Shown piece by piece: positions 6,121 through 22,735 of a stretch of DNA of 64,000 nucleotides (position 1 is its first letter; each line of letters opens with the position of its first letter). Source of the stretch: Spirochaetales bacterium (lineage in GTDB: Bacteria; Spirochaetota; Spirochaetia; JABEVK01). Below the pieces are notes generated by a model. That model did no database searches, was not told the origin of the DNA, and was given only the letters and a program-made list of their open reading frames with translations. The position numbers were made by a program, and so were the translations under genes. The stretch lies in contig CANJXC010000005.1 of the NCBI GenBank assembly GCA_947478845.1, positions 80,246-144,245 of the forward strand, in the 5' to 3' direction.

Positions 6121-6531
6121 TCAAGGCTCGAGAGCGACCCTCAAGGCGACCAGCGCCAGCACAATGGCGACGGGAGCGAAAAACCAGTTTTCCAGGCTCA
6201 CACCGCTGGCCAGATTGCCCACCGCGTTGAGCACCAAGAAGCCAAAAACCAGCCACAGCCCCACCGTGGGAATCACCCGGGCCCTGTCGGTGGGCACGAC
6301 GCCTGTTTTCATGAGCACCAGGGTCGCGAACCCCAAGGTGACCACCACGGCCAGCGCCTCGAGCCAATAGAAATTGGCCCGGTCGTTGATCACGATGCCG
6401 CCCCAGACAATGTCGGCCGGCAGAAGCCCCGCCACCACCAGCACGTGAAACACCAGCAAGGCCGCCAGCGCAGCGAGCAGAAGCGCCGAGGCCACCTTGG
6501 CCGGAAACACCTTGTCGAGGAAGGCTTTCAT
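6121..6531 (-). CDS. small hypothetical integral membrane protein (about 136 aa, 4 predicted TM)
   Basis: It starts at MKAFLDKVF. Its ATG overlaps the aspS stop as ATGA. The annotated 279-aa ORF is an upstream over-extension. Confidence 0.5.
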   Translation of the reverse strand: MKAFLDKVFPAKVASALLLAALAALLVFHVLVVAGLLPADIVWGGIVINDRANFYWLEALAVVVTLGFATLVLMKTGVVPTDRARVIPTVGLWLVFGFLVLNAVGNLASGVSLENWFFAPVAIVLALVALRVALEP

Positions 6532-8312
6532 CCCTCGACCACCTTGAGGCCCAGTTCCTTGAGTTGCAGGTCTTCGACCATGGCAGGGCTCTCGTCCATG
6601 GGGCTCGCGCCGAGCGTGTTCTTGGGGAAGGCGATCACTTCGCGGATGTTCTCTTGCCCGCTCATCACCATCACGAGGCGATCGAGTCCGGGGGCGATGC
6701 CACCGTGCGGCGGGGGGCCATACTGAAAGGCCTCGAGCAGAAAACCGAAACGTTCCTTGGCGCGGGCTTCGGGGTACCCCACCGTGTTGAACAGCCTCTG
6801 CTGAATGGCCGGGTCGTGAATACGGATGGAGCCCGACGCCATTTCGAAGCCGTTGCACACCAGGTCGTAGAGGTCGCCCTTCACCGGCCCCGGGTCGGTG
6901 TCGAAGGTGTCGAGGAAGCGGGCCTGGGGCATGGTGAACATGTGGTGCGCCGGTTCCCACGCCTTCAACTCGTCATTGAACTCAAACAGCGGAAAATCGA
7001 CAATCCACGCAAAGGCAAACTCGCCGGCCTTTGCCAGCCCCAGTTCGCGGCCGGCCTTGAGGCGCACAGCCCCCAGACTGGTGTTGGCCACCTTGGGCTG
7101 GTCCGCCACGAGCAGGATCACGTCGCCCACCGCCGCTTCGAGCTCTCGGAGAATGCCCTCGCTCATGGTGGCGAAGAACTTGGCCACGCCGGTGTCGAGC
7201 GTGGGTTGGCCGTCGGCGCCGGCGATGACCTTCATCGAAGCCAAACCCTTGGCACCGTATACCTTGGCGGCGTCTTCCCACTCGGCAATCTTCTTGCGGC
7301 TGGCATATTCGGCGGCACCCTTCACCACCAGCGCCTTCACGAGGCCGCCGGTCTCCAGCACGGACTCGAACGCGCTGAACCCGCTGCCGGGCACAAACAC
7401 GCTGAAGTCCTTCATGGGCATGCCAAAGCGCAGGTCGGGCTTGTCGCTGCCGTACAGCTCCATGGCGGTGTCGTAGGCCAGGCGCGGGAACGGGGTCTTG
7501 AGGTCGTACCCGATGCCGTCGGAGAACACCTTCGCCATCAGGCCTTCCATCATGGAATAGATATCCTCTGCGGTCACAAAACTCATTTCAATATCGATCT
7601 GGGTAAACTCCGGCTGACGGTCTACCCTCGGATCCTCGTCGCGGTAGCAACGAGCAATTTGAAAGTACTTGTCCATGCCGCCCACCATCAGAAGCTGCTT
7701 ATACAGCTGGGGGCTTTGAGGAAGGGCATAAAACTTACCCTGGTTGACCCGACTGGGAACCAAAAAGTCACGCGCGCCTTCGGGGGTACTCTTGATGAGC
7801 GTCGGCGTCTCAATTTCGAGGAAACCTAATCCATGCAGATACTGTCGGGTAGACCAAGTGACTTTATCGCGGAGAATCAAACGGTCCTTCATGCCGGTGG
7901 AACGCAGATCGAGGTAACGGTATTGCAACCGCAGCGTCTCGTTGGCCTTGTTGTCGTCCTCTGTAGGGAAGGGTAGCGTCGGAGCGCTGGAAAGCACCTG
8001 GACCTCACGGGCCACCACCTCCACCTCGCCGGTAGTCATTTTTGGGTTTCGCATGGTTTCGGGGCGGGCCTTCACAGTGCCAGACACCGCGAGGCAGAAC
8101 TCACTCTTGAGGCAGCTCACCTGCTCGAGCAGACCAGCAGGAGAACGTTCGTCGATGACAACCTGCGTGGTTCCGTAGCGGTCGCGCAGCGTAATGAAAG
8201 CCACGCCACCCTGATTGCGGAAACGATGGACCCAGCCATTGAGAACAACTGTTGCCTCCCTGTTGGACAGGGTCAATTCACCGCAGGTGAACGTTCGTTG
8301 GGGGAATACCAT
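6528..8312 (-). CDS. aspS: aspartate--tRNA ligase
   Basis: 594 aa. Class II aaRS motifs are present, including FQYGPPPHGGIAPGLDRLVM, and an N-terminal OB fold. Confidence 0.95.
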   Translation of the reverse strand: MVFPQRTFTCGELTLSNREATVVLNGWVHRFRNQGGVAFITLRDRYGTTQVVIDERSPAGLLEQVSCLKSEFCLAVSGTVKARPETMRNPKMTTGEVEVVAREVQVLSSAPTLPFPTEDDNKANETLRLQYRYLDLRSTGMKDRLILRDKVTWSTRQYLHGLGFLEIETPTLIKSTPEGARDFLVPSRVNQGKFYALPQSPQLYKQLLMVGGMDKYFQIARCYRDEDPRVDRQPEFTQIDIEMSFVTAEDIYSMMEGLMAKVFSDGIGYDLKTPFPRLAYDTAMELYGSDKPDLRFGMPMKDFSVFVPGSGFSAFESVLETGGLVKALVVKGAAEYASRKKIAEWEDAAKVYGAKGLASMKVIAGADGQPTLDTGVAKFFATMSEGILRELEAAVGDVILLVADQPKVANTSLGAVRLKAGRELGLAKAGEFAFAWIVDFPLFEFNDELKAWEPAHHMFTMPQARFLDTFDTDPGPVKGDLYDLVCNGFEMASGSIRIHDPAIQQRLFNTVGYPEARAKERFGFLLEAFQYGPPPHGGIAPGLDRLVMVMSGQENIREVIAFPKNTLGASPMDESPAMVEDLQLKELGLKVVEG

Positions 8313-8480
8313 AGCCCAAAGCTTAGCATGGTTGGCTTTTTGAGAGAAGTCGCCCGAAGTTCAGCCAAGACGAATCGACAGTCGCTGAGTGACGATAATA
8401 CCAGCTTTTGATAGACAATAGAGGTCAATAATAGCCAATATTGGACAACTTTTCATTTCTCATCAAACTTTAACGTTTTT

Positions 8481-8510
8481 ATTGACAAAATTGACAACCC
8501 ATGCATTGAC
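8481..8510 (+). promoter_or_regulatory. three direct ATTGAC(AA) repeats at about 10-12 bp spacing in an AT-rich divergent intergenic region
   Basis: The sequence is tttttATTGACAAaATTGACAAcccatgcATTGACgc. The repeats are helical-turn spaced and also match a -35-like TTGACA. Confidence 0.35.
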
Positions 8511-8560
8511 GCTTCTCGAAGCGCGAACGTACCTTGAGTTTAAACCGAAGGAGGTTTTCC

Positions 8561-8938
8561 TTGAACACACACTTGTTCGACCCCACTGAGTTTGCCGGGG
8601 CCCACACCGAAGACTTGCTTCATCATGTTGAGGAGCACAAATACTGGACCAACCAGTCGATTCCCCATGAAATCACCTTTGAGGAAGCCCTCGACTCATG
8701 GAACCAACTCGTTTACGCCCCGCTTTCCGATGCTATCCGCGACTTCCAATTGGATCTCGCCTTCCCTGAAGCGGGTCACGGTGAACTCTACCTGTGGGTA
8801 AGCCGACATTGGCACTACATGAAGCAAAACCTTAACCGCGAGGTGCTGGCACGCGAAGCCGTGCTCGACTTTGGAACTCGCTTCGGTAGGGATGCGCTTT
8901 CCCGTTTCGGCTTCTTCCTGAAAGGCCTGCGGGCCTAA
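8561..8938 (+). CDS. hypothetical protein (probable TTG start after AGGAGG RBS)
   Basis: AGGAGG at 8549-8554 precedes TTG 8561. The alternative start is 8534. It is the first gene upstream of msrA. Confidence 0.4.
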   Translation: MNTHLFDPTEFAGAHTEDLLHHVEEHKYWTNQSIPHEITFEEALDSWNQLVYAPLSDAIRDFQLDLAFPEAGHGELYLWVSRHWHYMKQNLNREVLAREAVLDFGTRFGRDALSRFGFFLKGLRA

Positions 8939-8993
8939 CTCCCGCTTGACTTCGGCTTCCCGCAACCCTAATTTCCTCATGAAGAGGTGAGGT

Positions 8994-9602
8994 ATGAAGG
9001 TGCGCGTGGGGGCCGTTTTTGGGGCGTTGCTGTTGTTGGCGCCAACGACACAGGTTTGGGCCGCCCAATCCGAAGTGGCTGTATTTTCCGGAGGCTGTTT
9101 TTGGGGTGTTGAGGCCGTTTTTGAACGCCTCAAGGGTGTAGGTGAAGTTTTATCGGGCTACACGGGCGGAACTCTTTCCAGCCCTAGCTACGAAGCAGTG
9201 AGTTCTGGCTCTACGGGCCACGCAGAATCGGTGAAGGTTGTTTACGACCCCGCCGTGGTCAGCTACGAAACACTACTTAAAGTGTTCTTTCTGGTGGCGC
9301 ACGACCCGACGCAACTGAATTATCAGGGACCGGACCACGGCACCCAGTATCGTTCGGCGCTTTGGTACACTACTCCTGCTCAAAAAACCACGGCTGAAGG
9401 GTCCATTCGCCAGCTTGAGAAAGACAAAATCTACCCGGGCAAGGTAGTGACAGAGGTAAAACCTCTGGTGAAGTTCTGGCCCGCCGAGGACTACCACCAA
9501 GACTTCATCGCCAACAACCCCACACAGGGCTACATTGTCAGGTTCGATCTTCCCAAGCTGAGGTACCTGCACAAAAACTTCCCCTCACTGGAGAAATCAT
9601 GA
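8994..9602 (+). CDS. msrA: peptide-methionine (S)-S-oxide reductase MsrA with N-terminal signal peptide
   Basis: GCFWG active-site motif. The signal peptide is [23 protein letters not shown]. Confidence 0.9.
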
Positions 9603-10186
9603 AGAGGAGTGCACTTACTCTTGCCGCTGTTTTTGTGTCGGTTGTTGGCCTTGTAGCGCCCTTGGTTGCCCAGTCAGGACTGTGGAAAGGTCTTCCGGTG
9701 GTGGAGGCTAGTGCCAAGCTAACCTTTCCAATAACCCGAACGGACGCCGAGTGGAAGAAGCAGCTTGGCGATTTCGCCTATTTCGTGCTTCGGGAACAGG
9801 GCACCGAAAGGGCCTTTTCCAACCCGATGCACCACGAAACCCGAAAGGGCACCTTTTATTCCGCAGCTACCGGCCAACCCTTGTTCCGCTCTGAGGCAAA
9901 GTTTGATTCCGGCACCGGCTGGCCGAGTTTCAGCCACCCCATACAGCAGAGCGCCGTGGTACTGCGCATCGATACCAGTTTTGGCGCGCAACGGGTGGAG
10001 GTCAGTGATTCCTCGTCCGGAAGCCACCTAGGTCATGTGTTCGACGACGGGCCGGGCAAGTCGGCAGACTTCCCCGAGGGTACCGGCCTGAGGTACTGCA
10101 TGGACGCGGCGAGCCTGCTGTTTGTTCCCGACGGAGCCGCCTTGCCTTCGTTGGTCAAAGACTATCAGGCCAAGTTCAAGAAATGA
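9599..10186 (+). CDS. msrB: peptide-methionine (R)-S-oxide reductase MsrB with N-terminal signal peptide
   Basis: SelR domain with GTGWPSF...RYCMDAASL. It overlaps the msrA stop by 4 nt. Confidence 0.9.
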
Positions 10187-10848
10187 CCATGAACAGCAGG
10201 AACTTCTTTCCGGTCACCCTGATGCGGAAAGAGCGCGAATACGACCAAGTGTTCAGTTTCTTTTTTCAACCCGAAGAGCCGGTAGAGTTTATTCCTGGCC
10301 AATACGTCCATTTTCTGGCGCCGGCCAGCGGGCCCGGCCGGGAAAACGTGCGCCACCTGTCGATGGCTTCGATTCCCGCAGAAGGAGAGTTGCGCTTCAG
10401 CCTCGACCTGCGATCAACGAGCGATTTCAAGCGCAAACTGGCTGCGCTTCGGCCCGGAGAAAGGGCACACATCTTCCGGGTCAAGGGTGATTTCGTTCTC
10501 GGGTCGCCCCCACCTGCTCAGGTAGTCTTTATTGCAGGGGGCTTGGGAATCACACCGATCCGAGGCCTCATCCGCCAGATTGTTCACGAAAGTCTCCCCG
10601 TCGACTGGCGCCTGCTCCACGCCGCCCGTGAGGCTTGGCTCTACGAAGCTGAACTGAGTGACCTCCGAGGAACCCAACTGCGTGTCAGGCGTGAAGGCGT
10701 ACCCGAAGTTCTCGACTCCTGGACTCAACAATGGCCGGCGGCACGGTACTACCTGTGCGGCTCGTCGAGGTTTGTGACCGGTCTGCGCGAGGCCCTTGCC
10801 TCCCGCCGGGTCAACGCTAACGTGGTGACGGTGGAAGACTTTGAGTAG
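10183..10848 (+). CDS. FNR-like FAD/NAD(P)-binding oxidoreductase (ferredoxin-reductase fold)
   Basis: The flavin-binding region has the RxYS-like motif RHLSMAS. The NAD-binding motif is [12 protein letters not shown]. It overlaps the msrB stop by 4 nt. No signal peptide. Confidence 0.7.
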
Positions 10849-10916
10849 AACTGAGCCTGATACACAGGCGAACCTCCGATGCTGACCCTCGGTGTTCCAT
10901 TGGGAAGCTCCCGGGT

Positions 10917-11771
10917 CTACATTGCTGTGCCGTAGATTCGACTTGGAGTGAAGTATTCGGTCAGCTTCATGCCTACCGTGACGGCGCTCGAAAAGCTACC
11001 TACAGCAAAGTAGTCTACGGGCACATAGGTACCGTTAGGTATCGTGTCTCCCTCATGGGTTTTGTTACCGCTGAGGTGGTAATTCAAGTAACTTGGGGGA
11101 ACCGGAAGTTCAGCCCGGACAAAACAGAGGGCATGCCCCGCGTTTGCCTTGAAAAAACTCGCCACGAACGACCGCCAGCCCCAGAACCGGAAAAACTCAC
11201 AGCTCAACAAGGCAAAATCCTCACAATCGCCGCCCCCTTGAGCAAGAAAGGCGTCGGGCCGCAGTGCGATAGAGTTCGGCTGGTAATGGTAGCGCGAATA
11301 GACGTACTGCTGGAATCTTTCGATCTCACCCCAATTGAGAGACCCGGAGCCGAGGTCGAACATCGTGAAAAGTCGGACAAGCTCTGCGGTAGCCCAGGGT
11401 GTTGCAGCCAGGTATTTTTCGGCCCGTGTGGTCTTTTCGTCCTTGGAATATTGGGGTGGGGGAAGTACCGCCTTGGGTGCGGTCTTCTTGTAGGTTTCCA
11501 CCTGGTCTACTGTAAAGTCATCGTAGGTAATGGAATAGGAAGTCGTGTCTATGGCTGGAATATCGATGGCCGGGATGTAGATCTCGGGCACGTCGATGGC
11601 CGGAATCTCAAAGAGTGCAGTCCTTCGGGCAGGGATGTGTATTGCCGGAAGGTGGACAGCCGGAAGGTGACGCGCGGGAACGTGAAGTTCGGGAATCACG
11701 ATACTCTCCGCGTAAAGGGCCGAAAGACAGCCAAGGGCCACCAAAAGCAGAAGCGCAATAAAAGGCTTCAT
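10917..11771 (-). CDS. secreted transglutaminase-like cysteine protease-fold protein with N-terminal tandem xxPAx pentapeptide repeats
   Basis: Signal peptide present. The repeats are HVPAR-HLPAV-HLPAI-HIPAR...IPAIDVPEIYIPAIDIPAID. The core motif GGGDCEDFALL carries the catalytic Cys. Confidence 0.6.
   Translation of the reverse strand: MKPFIALLLLVALGCLSALYAESIVIPELHVPARHLPAVHLPAIHIPARRTALFEIPAIDVPEIYIPAIDIPAIDTTSYSITYDDFTVDQVETYKKTAPKAVLPPPQYSKDEKTTRAEKYLAATPWATAELVRLFTMFDLGSGSLNWGEIERFQQYVYSRYHYQPNSIALRPDAFLAQGGGDCEDFALLSCEFFRFWGWRSFVASFFKANAGHALCFVRAELPVPPSYLNYHLSGNKTHEGDTIPNGTYVPVDYFAVGSFSSAVTVGMKLTEYFTPSRIYGTAM
11546..11705 (-). repeat. intragenic tandem 15-nt DNA repeat encoding the pentapeptide repeats
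   Basis: gccggaa/gccggga units recur (ggctggaatatcgatggccgggatgtag..cggaaggtggacagccggaaggtgacgc). Confidence 0.6.
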
Positions 11772-12151
11772 CGCAACTGGTTGTGTCGGAGTTTGTGCTC
11801 GGTTGCGAGCGAGTACCCCGCAACTACCGGGTGCTCATGCATAAACTGAGTCGACCAATAAATGCGGTATTTTCCGACGACGCTGAACGCCAGGATGTAC
11901 ACTCCGAGCTCATCGTTTTCCACTTCAGTGAGAATACCCAGCGTTTTCACATTCAGGATTTGCAGCACCTCTTCAAAGGTCATACCGTCATAAATCACAT
12001 TCTCAACCGCGTTATTGGAAATCGCGATTCTTTGCAGGGCATTCTTGATGGCATCAACCTGAGTTTGGGAAACACCAAGCTGCTGGGCTTCGACACCCGG
12101 AACCAAGAACAAGGCGAAAAAAAAGGAAAAAACGAGACAGGTTTGCTTCAT
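11768..12151 (-). CDS. small secreted hypothetical protein co-transcribed with the transglutaminase-like gene
   Basis: Signal peptide MKQTCLVFSFFFALFLVPGVEA. 4-nt overlap with the downstream gene. Confidence 0.45.
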   Translation of the reverse strand: MKQTCLVFSFFFALFLVPGVEAQQLGVSQTQVDAIKNALQRIAISNNAVENVIYDGMTFEEVLQILNVKTLGILTEVENDELGVYILAFSVVGKYRIYWSTQFMHEHPVVAGYSLATEHKLRHNQLR

Positions 12152-20648: not shown

Positions 20649-21707
20649 TTGGTAACCATGCAATTTGGACTTTTTTCGTTTGGCGATTACGCTCATGAAC
20701 TTTTTGGCGACTCGGGCCTCTCGCAAGCCCAGCGCATGACCAACCTCCTCGAGGAAATGAAGCTTGCCGACGAGGTGGGGCTGGATTTCTTCGGCCTAGG
20801 CGAGCACCACCGACCCGACTTCATCGTGAGCTCACCGGTAACCGTACTGGCCGCCGCGGCCGCTATCACCAAGAAGATCCGCCTGAGCACTGCCGTGTCG
20901 GTGTTGAGCTCGGAAGACCCTGTGCGGGTGTTTCAACAATTTGCCACCCTTGATTTGATTTCTGGTGGGCGCGCCCAAATCATGGCCGGACGAGGGAGCT
21001 TCATCGAAAGTTTCCCTTTGTTTGGTTACGATCTCGACGATTACGAGGAACTATTCAACGAGAAACTGGATCTGCTTCTTGCCCTCACGCAGGGCTCAGA
21101 GCACGTGCATTGGAAGGGCAGTGGCAAGTTCCGCGCGGCACTGACAGGCCAGTCGATTCAGCCCAGGCCTATCCAGAGCCCGCTTCCGGTAACCATTGCC
21201 GTAGGGGGCAGCCCCGACTCGGCGGCTCGAGCTGGACACCTAGGCCTTCCCTTAGCACTGGCCATCATCGGCGGACAACCCGCGCGCTTCAAGCCTTTCG
21301 TGGACTACTACCGCGAAGCCGGAGCACAGGCCGGGCACTCACCCGAAAAACTGAACGTCACCATAAACCAGCACGGCTTTCTTGCCGAAGACAGCCAAGT
21401 TGCGGGCGACTTAGTTTGGCCCTCCTATCAACGGATGGTAGACCGACTCGGACGCGAGCGTGGCTGGCCGCCCCAAGCTCGCCAGCACTTTGACGCCGGC
21501 TGTGGCAAGCACGGACACCTGCTGGTGGGAAGCCCTCAGCAAGCCATCGACAAAATCTTGCTTGAGTATGAAATCTTCCACATGGAAAAGTTTGCCATAC
21601 AGTTCACCGTGGGGGGAAACAACCATCCCGAGGTGCTGCGGTCGATCGAGCTGTTTGGCACGGTAGTGGCCCCCGAAGTCCGCAAGGCGCTCGGCCAGCC
21701 TGCATGA
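20649..21707 (+). CDS. LLM-class flavin-dependent oxidoreductase (luciferase-like monooxygenase)
   Basis: Typical N-terminus FGLFSFGDY...LGEHH. 352 aa. Confidence 0.85.
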   Translation: MVTMQFGLFSFGDYAHELFGDSGLSQAQRMTNLLEEMKLADEVGLDFFGLGEHHRPDFIVSSPVTVLAAAAAITKKIRLSTAVSVLSSEDPVRVFQQFATLDLISGGRAQIMAGRGSFIESFPLFGYDLDDYEELFNEKLDLLLALTQGSEHVHWKGSGKFRAALTGQSIQPRPIQSPLPVTIAVGGSPDSAARAGHLGLPLALAIIGGQPARFKPFVDYYREAGAQAGHSPEKLNVTINQHGFLAEDSQVAGDLVWPSYQRMVDRLGRERGWPPQARQHFDAGCGKHGHLLVGSPQQAIDKILLEYEIFHMEKFAIQFTVGGNNHPEVLRSIELFGTVVAPEVRKALGQPA

Positions 21708-22735
21708 AACTCTTCGAGCCTTACCTGCTAGGAGACCTACAGCTCCCCAACCGCATCGTGATGGCCCCGATGACGCGCAATCGTTCGCCAGGGCAGATCC
21801 AGTCGGACTGGGCAGTGGAGCATTACTCGCTGCGCGCTACTGCGGGCTTGATTCTCAGCGAGTCGACGCAAGTTTCGGCAAGAGCTCAGGGCTCAGCGGA
21901 CACTCCGGGACTGTATAATCAGGCCCAGGCTACGGCGTGGAAAAACGTTGTAGAGGCGGTTCACGACGCCGGTGGTCGCATCGTGGCGCAACTCGGCCAT
22001 GCGGGAAGGCTCTCCCATTCCGACTACCATGGCCAGAAGCCCGCCGCTCCCTCGCCCGTCATCCCTGAGGGGTTTGTTCGCACTCCTTTGGGAACCAAAA
22101 ACTACGAAGACCCTTGGGTGCCAGCCACCGCCGAGGTGGCTGCTTTGGTAGAGGAGTTTGCCCTCGCGGCCAAGTGGGCCCGATGGGCTGGGTTTGACGG
22201 AGTGGAACTACACGGGGCGCATGGCTTCCTTCTCGACCAGTTTCTGCAAAGTGCCACCAATCGGCGCACTGACCGCTATGGGGGCGACGCGGCCGGTCGG
22301 CGTACTTTCGCTCTCGAGGTTTTGCAGGCGGTGATGGCCCATTTTCCAGGCCATCGCATCGGCTACACGGTGTCGCCTGGAGGCAACCACAAAGGAATCG
22401 GCGATAGCGACCCGATTGGCACTTTCACGGGCTTGGCCCGAGCGCTGTCTCAGGCGAGAATCGGCTGGCTCCACGTGGCCGACCTCCCTTTGGGCGAGCT
22501 CAAGCCCAGCGAGTTCCTGCGTGGTGAGTTCCAGGGCACGCTGATAGTGAGCGAGGGCTACACCCGCGATTCCGCCCAAGAGATTCTGGAGCACAACGGT
22601 GCCGACCTGGTGGCCTTCGGTAAGGCCTTCACCGCAAATCCCGACCTTGTAGACCTTCTGCGCCGCGGTGACCGGCTGGAACTTCACGACCCCAAAACTT
22701 TCTATGCGGGTGGAAAGACCGGCTATATCGAGTAG
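21704..22735 (+). CDS. NADH:flavin oxidoreductase, Old Yellow Enzyme family (alkene reductase)
   Basis: Motifs NRIVMAPMTR and HGAHGFLLDQF. Overlaps the LLM gene stop. Confidence 0.9.
   Translation: MKLFEPYLLGDLQLPNRIVMAPMTRNRSPGQIQSDWAVEHYSLRATAGLILSESTQVSARAQGSADTPGLYNQAQATAWKNVVEAVHDAGGRIVAQLGHAGRLSHSDYHGQKPAAPSPVIPEGFVRTPLGTKNYEDPWVPATAEVAALVEEFALAAKWARWAGFDGVELHGAHGFLLDQFLQSATNRRTDRYGGDAAGRRTFALEVLQAVMAHFPGHRIGYTVSPGGNHKGIGDSDPIGTFTGLARALSQARIGWLHVADLPLGELKPSEFLRGEFQGTLIVSEGYTRDSAQEILEHNGADLVAFGKAFTANPDLVDLLRRGDRLELHDPKTFYAGGKTGYIE

Follow-up and report, generated by a model that had tools for sequence, protein, structure and literature searches.

A Spirochaetales gene cluster for predicted exported single-cysteine MsrA and MsrB, located behind the conserved ORF125 and its upstream module

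Introduction

Methionine sulfoxide reductases (Msr) with a single cysteine finish their catalytic cycle with this cysteine as a sulfenic acid (Cys-SOH), and an external thiol reductant is required to start the next one. We know of no flavin or haem reductant for the Cys-SOH of thiol Msr enzymes. In all characterised extracytoplasmic MsrA and MsrB systems, electrons come from a thioredoxin-fold protein that is recharged by DsbD or CcdA (PMC13488963 Table 1; PMC9239216; PMC3914529; PMC7034828). The redox partners are a fused thioredoxin with DsbD in Neisseria and a thioredoxin with CcdA in Haemophilus influenzae, and for the exported MsrAB of Treponema denticola the partner was not reported (PMC13488963 Table 1). 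The MsrPQ/Fre route serves a molybdoenzyme and not thiol Msr proteins (PMC12525009), and in Fusobacterium nucleatum the two-component system ModRS controls the msrAB locus (PMC9239216). Here we describe an msrA-msrB locus in a 64 kb stretch of DNA from an uncultured Spirochaetales bacterium (the window), in which the two msr genes are preceded by a conserved open reading frame (ORF), ORF125, and followed by a gene for an FNR-like flavoprotein.

The locus is largely ordinary and belongs to the known class of extracytoplasmic thiol Msr systems. By analogy with this class, we consider it probable, at roughly 0.6, that the Msr enzymes of the window receive their electrons in trans from a relay of the thioredoxin-fold/CcdA type whose genes lie elsewhere, and that the FNR-like protein stays in the cytoplasm.

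Results

Two Msr enzymes that keep only the catalytic cysteine

ORF125, msrA, msrB and the FNR-like gene form a tightly packed four-gene cluster on the same strand, as follows.

8561-8938, + strand: ORF125, with a TTG start and the Shine-Dalgarno (SD) sequence GGAGG at 8550-8554; first gene of the cluster
8939-8993, + strand: 55-nt spacer between ORF125 and msrA, with a weak promoter-like pair and the msrA SD GAGGTGAGG at 8984-8992
8994-9602, + strand: msrA, exported peptide-methionine (S)-S-oxide reductase; predicted signal peptide at residues 1-23 (nt 8994-9062)
9599-10186, + strand: msrB, exported peptide-methionine (R)-S-oxide reductase; predicted signal peptide or possible signal anchor at residues 1-24 (nt 9599-9670)
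10183-10848, + strand: FNR-like gene, for a cytoplasmic FNR-fold NAD(P)H flavoprotein of 219-221 amino acids

Overlaps of 4 nt (ATGA) occur at both the msrA/msrB and the msrB/FNR junctions; therefore msrA-msrB-FNR is one translationally packed unit. The start codons of msrA and msrB are both preceded by good SD sequences. The identities that the initial annotation had given to these three genes (MsrA, MsrB and FNR-like flavoprotein) were borne out by the ORF listing and by profile scans with Pfam and NCBIfam. It had also placed a set of ATTGAC repeats directly in front of msrA; this position was mistaken, since the conserved ORF125, overlooked earlier, lies between the repeats and msrA. Among relatives that carry msrAB, the Spirochaetales metagenome-assembled genome (MAG) ELA137 (GCA_037142615.1; locus L011) is the nearest: its products are 85% (AspS), 76% (ORF125) and 76% (MsrB) identical to those of the window, and the synteny is the same in both (aspS / ORF125-msrA-msrB ... 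leuDC).

MsrA matched PMSR in Pfam (PF01625, E 1e-59, 201.6 bits against a cut-off of 23.7) and TIGR00401 in NCBIfam (180 bits, cut-off 108), with the MsrA domain of Neisseria PilB as its best PDB match (E 7e-42). Its single Cys, Cys35, is located within the catalytic motif GGCFWG. The C-terminal recycling Cys of the 2- or 3-Cys MsrA type, known from Escherichia coli and Neisseria, was not found in this protein: where PilB has GYC, the window MsrA has GYI, and the recycling Cys has been lost to Ile. MsrB matched SelR (PF01641, E 3e-37, 127.5 bits, cut-off 24.9) and TIGR00357 (150 bits, cut-off 113), and its best solved match was MsrB3 (E 1.4e-30). In the alignment to MsrB3 neither zinc CxxC pair was found, with SAAT and DSSS in their place, and the resolving Cys before GWPSF was also absent (TGWPSF instead of CGWPSF). 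The one Cys of MsrB is the catalytic Cys167 in RYC (RYCMD).

Both proteins are bona fide Msr enzymes keeping only the catalytic Cys. In the clade alignment of MsrB, the replacements of the zinc cysteines and of the resolving Cys are invariant and form two invariant signature motifs, and 81 of the 120 closest homologues have exactly one Cys. By these motifs, the exported, zinc-less, single-Cys MsrB belongs to a large and widespread clade that already exists.

Export was judged by the classical rules for the n-, h- and c-regions and for the -3/-1 site, not by a dedicated predictor, and by comparison with homologues. MsrA starts with MKVR, followed by an uncharged core of 15 residues and the site VWA/AQ; MsrB starts with MKR, followed by an uncharged core of 21 residues and the site LVA/QS. 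No comparable signal was seen by the same check in ORF125, the FNR-like protein or AspS. Strongly hydrophobic N-termini are kept in 102 of the 120 closest MsrB homologues, and the nearest relative has another signal of equivalent make-up on MsrA, and the lipobox LAGC on MsrB. These features support the prediction of Sec-type export for both MsrA and MsrB, and agree with the signal peptides proposed for them in the initial annotation.

The MsrB signal could also act as an uncleaved signal anchor, which would tether the enzyme to the outer face of the inner membrane. The uncharged core is as long as 21 residues, the best cleavage site has Leu at -3 and relatives are membrane-tethered through the lipobox, all of which would suit an anchor. 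However, LVA/QS satisfies the -3/-1 rule, Pro is present at -4, and a typical A-x-A before Q is found in many homologues, and we regard tethering of the window MsrB as unlikely.

Search for an electron-donor partner

All non-overlapping ORFs of the window with at least 90 amino acids were searched for predicted transmembrane (TM) segments and CxxC motifs, and every multi-TM ORF was profile-scanned. The multi-TM ORFs are ABC permeases, an MFS transporter, a FecCD permease, a UPF0114 protein and one 135-aa ORF without a family match; MsrQ, DsbD, CcdA and cytochrome b were not among them. A small CxxC thioredoxin-fold ORF was not found in the 64 kb either, and in the profile scans no ORF of the window matched the domains of MsrP or MsrQ type (Oxidored_molyb, Ferric_reduct). 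Hence, the earlier statement that no MsrQ- or DsbD-like membrane partner is present can be kept for the whole window. The 135-aa ORF (6121-6528, - strand) has several hydrophobic stretches and no Pfam match, and its start overlaps the stop of aspS. It is absent at the equivalent position of L011, where aspS is followed directly by an ABC ATPase gene.

In analogy with the characterised systems, reduction of methionine sulfoxide in the periplasm would leave the single Cys of the Msr enzyme as a sulfenic acid, which a periplasmic thioredoxin-fold protein would reduce. A CcdA/DsbD-type membrane relay would then recharge this protein with electrons from cytoplasmic thioredoxin. The genes of these partners (thioredoxin-fold, CcdA/DsbD) would be located elsewhere in the genome, and the FNR-like flavoprotein would work in the cytoplasm, merely co-expressed with the Msr enzymes and not donating electrons to them.

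Several points weigh against this scheme. The relay in trans is assumed, not observed. No thioredoxin-fold or CcdA/DsbD gene was found next to any of the five close clade members examined (the window, L011, L025, L026 and L108), and because of this, and because the partner of T. denticola MsrAB is not reported, a residual doubt about the relay is kept. The location of the Msr enzymes outside the cytoplasm is itself predicted from rules and homologues. The 4-nt overlap of msrB with the FNR-like gene speaks for co-translation and, with it, for some functional tie between the two products. On the side of transcription, a consensus sigma-70 scan of 8250-11000 called no + strand promoter at the thresholds used.

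More distant metagenome loci have redox genes of different kinds beside msrB. TlpA/AhpC-type redoxins adjoin exported msrB in L034 (7134-8954) and L051 (5323-9872), and cytochrome b561 genes adjoin it in L051 (5323-9872), L066 (3083-5080) and L071 (7166-9440). In L066 a molybdopterin oxidoreductase is also encoded beside exported msrB, an MsrP-like pairing. The exported msrB genes of these four contigs occur with or without msrA.

The FNR-like flavoprotein and its linkage to msrAB

The FNR-like protein carries the NAD_binding_1 domain (26.9 bits, Pfam cut-off 22), and its best NCBIfam similarity is to the flavohaemoprotein reductase model (E 8.5e-20). All hallmarks of the superfamily were found, namely NAD_binding_1, R-x-[YL]-S, GGxGxxP and a C-terminal aromatic residue; in the family alignment the flavin motif RHLS(M/I)AS, the nucleotide motif GGLGITP and the C-terminal EDFE are invariant or nearly so. 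PDB matches were the reductase domain of flavohaemoglobin (E 4e-11), the dehydrogenase domain of SpNOX (about 1e-6) and Fre (E 2.4e-4), and the score with the Fre model was 29 bits against a cut-off of 230. No N-terminal hydrophobic segment was found in the protein, in accordance with the cytoplasmic location assigned to it earlier.

The family is small, with about 31 clusters at 50-62% identity before a drop to E 1e-11. A position after msrB was found for the gene only on contigs with 99% identity to the window. In seven genomic contexts with homologues of 50-62% identity, the gene follows that of an 814-aa DinG-like helicase, an alpha/beta-hydrolase is usually encoded next downstream, and no msr gene was found nearby. 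Conversely, a homologue of the FNR-like protein or of ORF125 was found in none of a further 80 metagenomic msrB loci. These loci came from a metagenome scan with the MsrB clade alignment and are a mixture of zinc-containing, cytoplasmic and exported types; apart from yielding the redoxin and cytochrome b561 neighbours named above, the scan serves as a negative control for linkage only. The third-position GC content of the FNR-like gene (GC3, 0.67) is the same as that of its neighbours. With the linkage confined to the 99%-identical contigs and the homologues located elsewhere, a recent species-level rearrangement is indicated; judging from these gene contexts, the FNR-like gene joined the msr cluster only in the present species and is a recent addition. 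The linkage gives co-expression, and the comparison of genomes does not support a shared pathway.

In the nearest msrAB-bearing relative, the slot of the FNR-like gene holds a 139-aa ORF after msrB with four predicted TM segments and several His (L011 8738-9157, + strand). A reading of this ORF as a cytochrome-b/DUF4405-like protein was dropped, as the ORF matched no family and the window has no homologue of it.

The initial annotation had pointed to the FNR-like gene in the search for the Msr electron supply. In the fullest form of this idea, the cytoplasmic flavoprotein would be the entry of a dedicated route to the periplasmic Msr enzymes through a membrane carrier, in the manner of MsrQ/Fre or of NOX. 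The overlap of its start with the msrB stop, the likeness of its family to haem-feeding reductase modules (flavohaemoglobin reductase, SpNOX and Fre, the last at E 2e-4), the His-containing 4-TM ORF in the same slot of ELA137, the cytochrome b561 genes next to exported msrB in other bacteria and the lack of a thioredoxin or CcdA gene beside close clade members would all suit such a route. However, the linkage is restricted to the present species, and neither the seven homologue contexts nor the 80 msrB loci repeat it. Moreover, no haem or quinone membrane protein was found in the window, the L011 membrane ORF has the shortcomings named above, and the general knowledge on thiol Msr enzymes given in the Introduction holds no flavin or haem reductant for their Cys-SOH. 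We thus consider a dedicated FNR route highly improbable. A still broader proposal, prompted by the lack of a relay gene beside the five close members and by the unreported partner of T. denticola MsrAB, is that the exported, zinc-less, single-Cys Msr clade of Spirochaetales as a whole is recharged by a new route other than CcdA/DsbD-thioredoxin, with the FNR-like protein or the 4-TM protein of ELA137 taking part, and that ORF125 with its promoter described below marks an uncharacterised stress regulon that recruited msrAB. We consider this combination likewise highly improbable. Recharging in trans by a relay of the thioredoxin-fold/CcdA type is preferred to both.

Luciferase-like monooxygenases often require a separate flavin reductase. 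About 10 kb from the FNR-like gene, the window encodes a luciferase-like monooxygenase (20649-21707, + strand) and an NADH:flavin oxidoreductase of the Old Yellow Enzyme type (21704-22735, + strand). As a speculation, the monooxygenase could be an alternative cytoplasmic client of the FNR-like protein.

ORF125 and its conserved upstream module

ORF125 encodes 125 amino acids without Cys and without a hydrophobic N-terminus, and is called as a gene on the 99%-identical metagenome contigs. Its homologues form 43 clusters at 58-99% identity, with a mean column identity of 81% in the family alignment; E24, E25, H26, H83 and D103 are invariant. The AlphaFold2 model is all helical with a predicted local distance difference test score (pLDDT) of 72, and a Foldseek search with this model gave no significant PDB match. 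Pfam and NCBIfam gave no match above threshold; the single protein scored weakly with DUF4032 (PF13224, 13.9 bits, cut-off 23.8). With a family profile, 444 relatives were found in a library of 1.8 billion proteins, and many of these relatives are multi-domain proteins that pass the DUF4032 cut-off, some with Usp domains; the ORF125-type domain is also repeated within large proteins that carry Usp domains. A literature search on DUF4032 found no papers. From its conservation, we take ORF125 to be a real conserved cytoplasmic protein with a remote relation to DUF4032. Its synteny with aspS is ancient, and in relatives a SpoIIE-type phosphatase or STAS-like gene is also syntenic with it.

The region in front of ORF125 contains the following elements.

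8414-8449, + strand: phased array GACAAT/GTCAAT/GCCAAT/GGACAA with an exact 10 bp period; candidate multi-site regulator-binding array
8481-8487, + strand: ATTGAC copy 1 (ATTGACA), conserved box in a T-rich stretch, 24 bp before copy 3
8490-8495, + strand: ATTGAC copy 2, present only in the window and in 99%-identical contigs
8505-8511, + strand: ATTGAC copy 3 (ATTGACG), of which TTGACG at 8506-8511 is the probable -35 of the ORF125 promoter
8530-8535, + strand: probable -10 hexamer TACCTT, TACATT in most orthologues, assigned by conservation
8542-8557, + strand: hairpin AAACC-GAAGGA-GGTTT, overlapping the ORF125 SD GGAGG

The three ATTGAC direct repeats named in the initial annotation exist, and their spacing of 10-12 bp does not: on the + strand they start at 8481, 8490 and 8505, which gives start-to-start distances of 9 and 15 bp and no helical phasing. 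The triple is statistically real. It is the sole triple of any complex 6-mer within 30 bp across the 64 kb, and arose in 24 of 20,000 shuffles of the 248-bp intergenic region. The helical period belongs to a different element, the phased array at 8414-8449, and GNCAAT-N4-GNCAAT-N4-GNCAAT with 0 mismatches occurs nowhere else in the window.

The region upstream of ORF125 was compared among eight Spirochaetales lineages (the window, L011, L013, L014, L017, L018, L019 and L020), most of them without msrAB. A common order was found, in which a GGACAA-type array is followed by a T-rich stretch ending in WTTGACA, after exactly 24 bp by CRTGCRTTGACGTTTT, after a further 16-18 nt by GTAC(A/C)TT, and then by the SD and the start codon. 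The array is kept as three to five GGACAA-type units at 10-11 bp in the eight orthologous loci, WTTGACA (copy 1) is invariant in position in all eight aligned regions, the CRTGCRTTGACGTTTT box (copy 3) is conserved in seven of them, and GTAC(A/C)TT is invariant in the alignment. At the position of copy 2 the orthologues read GATTTAGG, TTTTGGAC, ATCTGACG and the like, with the 24-bp frame unchanged, and the alignment indicates that copy 2 arose by substitution, not insertion, inside this fixed frame. One MAG has two paralogous ORF125 copies (L017 and L018), both with the upstream module. By this comparison, copies 1 and 3 and the 10-bp GNCAAT array go with ORF125 as its conserved cis-elements, whether or not msrAB is there. 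The proposal that the ATTGAC repeats form an msr-specific OmpR site is thus not sustained: they are part of a module that also occurs in lineages without msrAB, copy 2 is not conserved and the spacing is not helical.

From the conserved positions, TTGACG (8506-8511)-N18-TACCTT (8530-8535) is the probable promoter of ORF125, from which transcription would start near 8542. The sigma-70 scan mentioned above called none on the + strand, and the assignment follows from conservation; TACCTT was not called as a -10 because only three of its six bases match the consensus. Copy 1 may be an UP-element, an activator site or a second -35, and the phased array is a likely target of a regulator binding at several sites; together they would act as upstream regulator or UP elements. 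Sigma-54, extracytoplasmic function (ECF) and sigma-B promoters, and a palindromic operator at box 3, were looked for by eye, and none was conserved across the orthologous regions.

The hairpin over the ORF125 SD is accompanied in orthologues by hairpins with compensatory changes (GAACC/GGTTC, GTGAGCC/GGTTCAC and GAAGCC/GGTTTC), and it may act in the translational control of ORF125. An Rfam scan of 8250-11000 with E up to 1 gave no match, so the leader conserved here belongs to none of the known RNA families.

Which promoter drives msrAB

A weak promoter-like pair, TTGACT (8946-8951)-N17-TAATTT (8969-8974), is located in the spacer between ORF125 and msrA. The terminator scan of 8250-11000 found no + strand terminator, and no T-tailed terminator was present in the 55-nt spacer, therefore read-through from ORF125 into msrA is plausible. 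In our scheme, msrAB-FNR would be transcribed by read-through from the ORF125 promoter, from the weak internal promoter (8946-8974), or from both; judged from the sequence, the two modes are not mutually exclusive.

Alternatively, msrA-msrB-FNR may be a transcription unit of its own that starts from the spacer promoter, and the ATTGAC boxes and the phased array would then have no effect on msr expression. The spacer pair is located just ahead of the msrA SD, msrAB is inserted downstream of ORF125 only in one sub-lineage, and in L011 a strong hairpin (-28 kcal/mol) separates ORF125 and msrA. However, the -10 of the spacer pair matches three of six bases and falls below the scan threshold, the window has no T-tailed terminator after ORF125, and the window and L011 share no conserved spacer sequence. 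We consider a separate msr unit possible but rather improbable.

The two-component system at 59-2249

The window encodes a two-component system at 59-2249, some 6 kb from the cluster, whose regulator is of the OmpR/PhoB type (Response_reg and Trans_reg_C). The initial annotation had suggested that it may control the msr genes in the way of HprSR. Six genes on mixed strands lie between this system and msr (GH18, two ABC transporter genes, the small membrane ORF, aspS and ORF125), and in ELA137, where the cis-module is retained, the syntenic position lacks the system. Its regulator is 31-34% identical to the regulators near msrAB in L025 (about 31%) and near ORF125 in L014. Orthology with those systems was rejected because the identity is only of this order.

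Two-component genes do occur next to msr genes in other genomes. In L025 (4141-7576), an OmpR-type response regulator and a histidine kinase are encoded directly upstream of, and co-oriented with, exported msrA-msrB, an arrangement like that of ModRS or HprSR, and the L025 MsrB is 67% identical to that of the window. L070, L065 and L029 have similar pairs at distances of 0.3-3 kb from msrB. Two-component control of msr is thus reasonable as a class, and nothing ties the system at 59-2249 to the msr cluster.

Control of the cluster by this system, through the ATTGAC copies or the GNCAAT array as in HprSR-msrPQ or ModRS-msrAB, would have the right type of regulator on its side, as well as the neighbouring pairs in L025, L070, L065 and L029 and the regulation of msrAB by ModRS in F. 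nucleatum (PMC9239216). Direct repeats at 10-11 bp are typical of the OmpR family, which the 10 bp GNCAAT array fits and the ATTGAC spacings of 9, 15 and 24 bp do not. However, the cis-elements accompany ORF125 with or without msrAB, ELA137 keeps them with no such system at the syntenic position, and no similar array is found in the system's own upstream region. Together with the low regulator identity and the six intervening genes, this makes control by the system at 59-2249 very unlikely.

Neighbouring genes downstream

Facing the msr cluster in convergent orientation are the genes of two exported proteins, at 10917-11771 (- strand) and 11768-12151 (- strand). The first has a weak, sub-threshold similarity to the transglutaminase core and an N-terminal run of short proline-containing repeats (HVPAR HLPAV HLPAI HIPAR ... 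IPAIDVPEIYIPAIDIPAID); the second has no family match.

Discussion

Our analysis adds one more example of extracytoplasmic, thiol-based methionine sulfoxide repair in a diderm. The suggestive neighbours of msrAB, a flavin reductase and a nearby two-component system, appear to be accidents of recent gene order. Exported MsrB without the zinc site and without non-catalytic cysteines defines, by its motifs, a large clade. In addition, the strikingly conserved ORF125 module, made up of repeats phased at 10 bp, a pair of TTGAC boxes at a distance of 24 bp and the SD hairpin, would offer a tractable entry to gene regulation in an uncultured Spirochaetales lineage.

The closest known systems share one or more features with the locus and differ in others. 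Neisseria PilB (Trx-MsrA-MsrB) and H. influenzae MsrAB resemble it in having thiol MsrA and MsrB outside the cytoplasm of a diderm. However, the window has separate MsrA and MsrB proteins, no fused or adjacent thioredoxin domain, and GYI instead of the GYC of PilB in MsrA, and the partners of these systems (thioredoxin with DsbD or CcdA) are not in the window. The systems of Streptococcus pneumoniae (MsrAB2-Etrx1/2-CcdA1/2) and F. nucleatum (msrAB-trx-ccdA-modRS) are alike in that an extracytoplasmic Msr depends on an external relay. These loci encode the thioredoxin-fold and CcdA partners and a regulator beside msrAB, whereas in the window an FNR-fold reductase gene and a DUF4032-like gene flank it.

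E. coli MsrPQ-Fre-HprSR combines periplasmic methionine sulfoxide repair, a soluble FNR-fold Fre feeding a membrane protein, and two-component control (PMC12525009). Its MsrP is a molybdoenzyme and its MsrQ a haem/flavin membrane protein, neither of which is encoded in the window, where the enzymes are thiol Msr proteins; the FNR-like protein of the window is only weakly Fre-like. Treponema denticola MsrAB is spirochaetal like the window proteins, is predicted to be exported or a lipoprotein, and likewise has no reported donor (PMC13488963 Table 1), but it is a fused protein, whereas the window Msr proteins are split with one Cys each. Mammalian MsrB3 also works in an oxidising compartment, the endoplasmic reticulum, and also has a non-Cys residue before GWPSF. 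MsrB3 keeps the zinc CxxC pairs, whereas the window MsrB has replaced all four zinc cysteines and carries a 7-residue insertion before the catalytic RYC.

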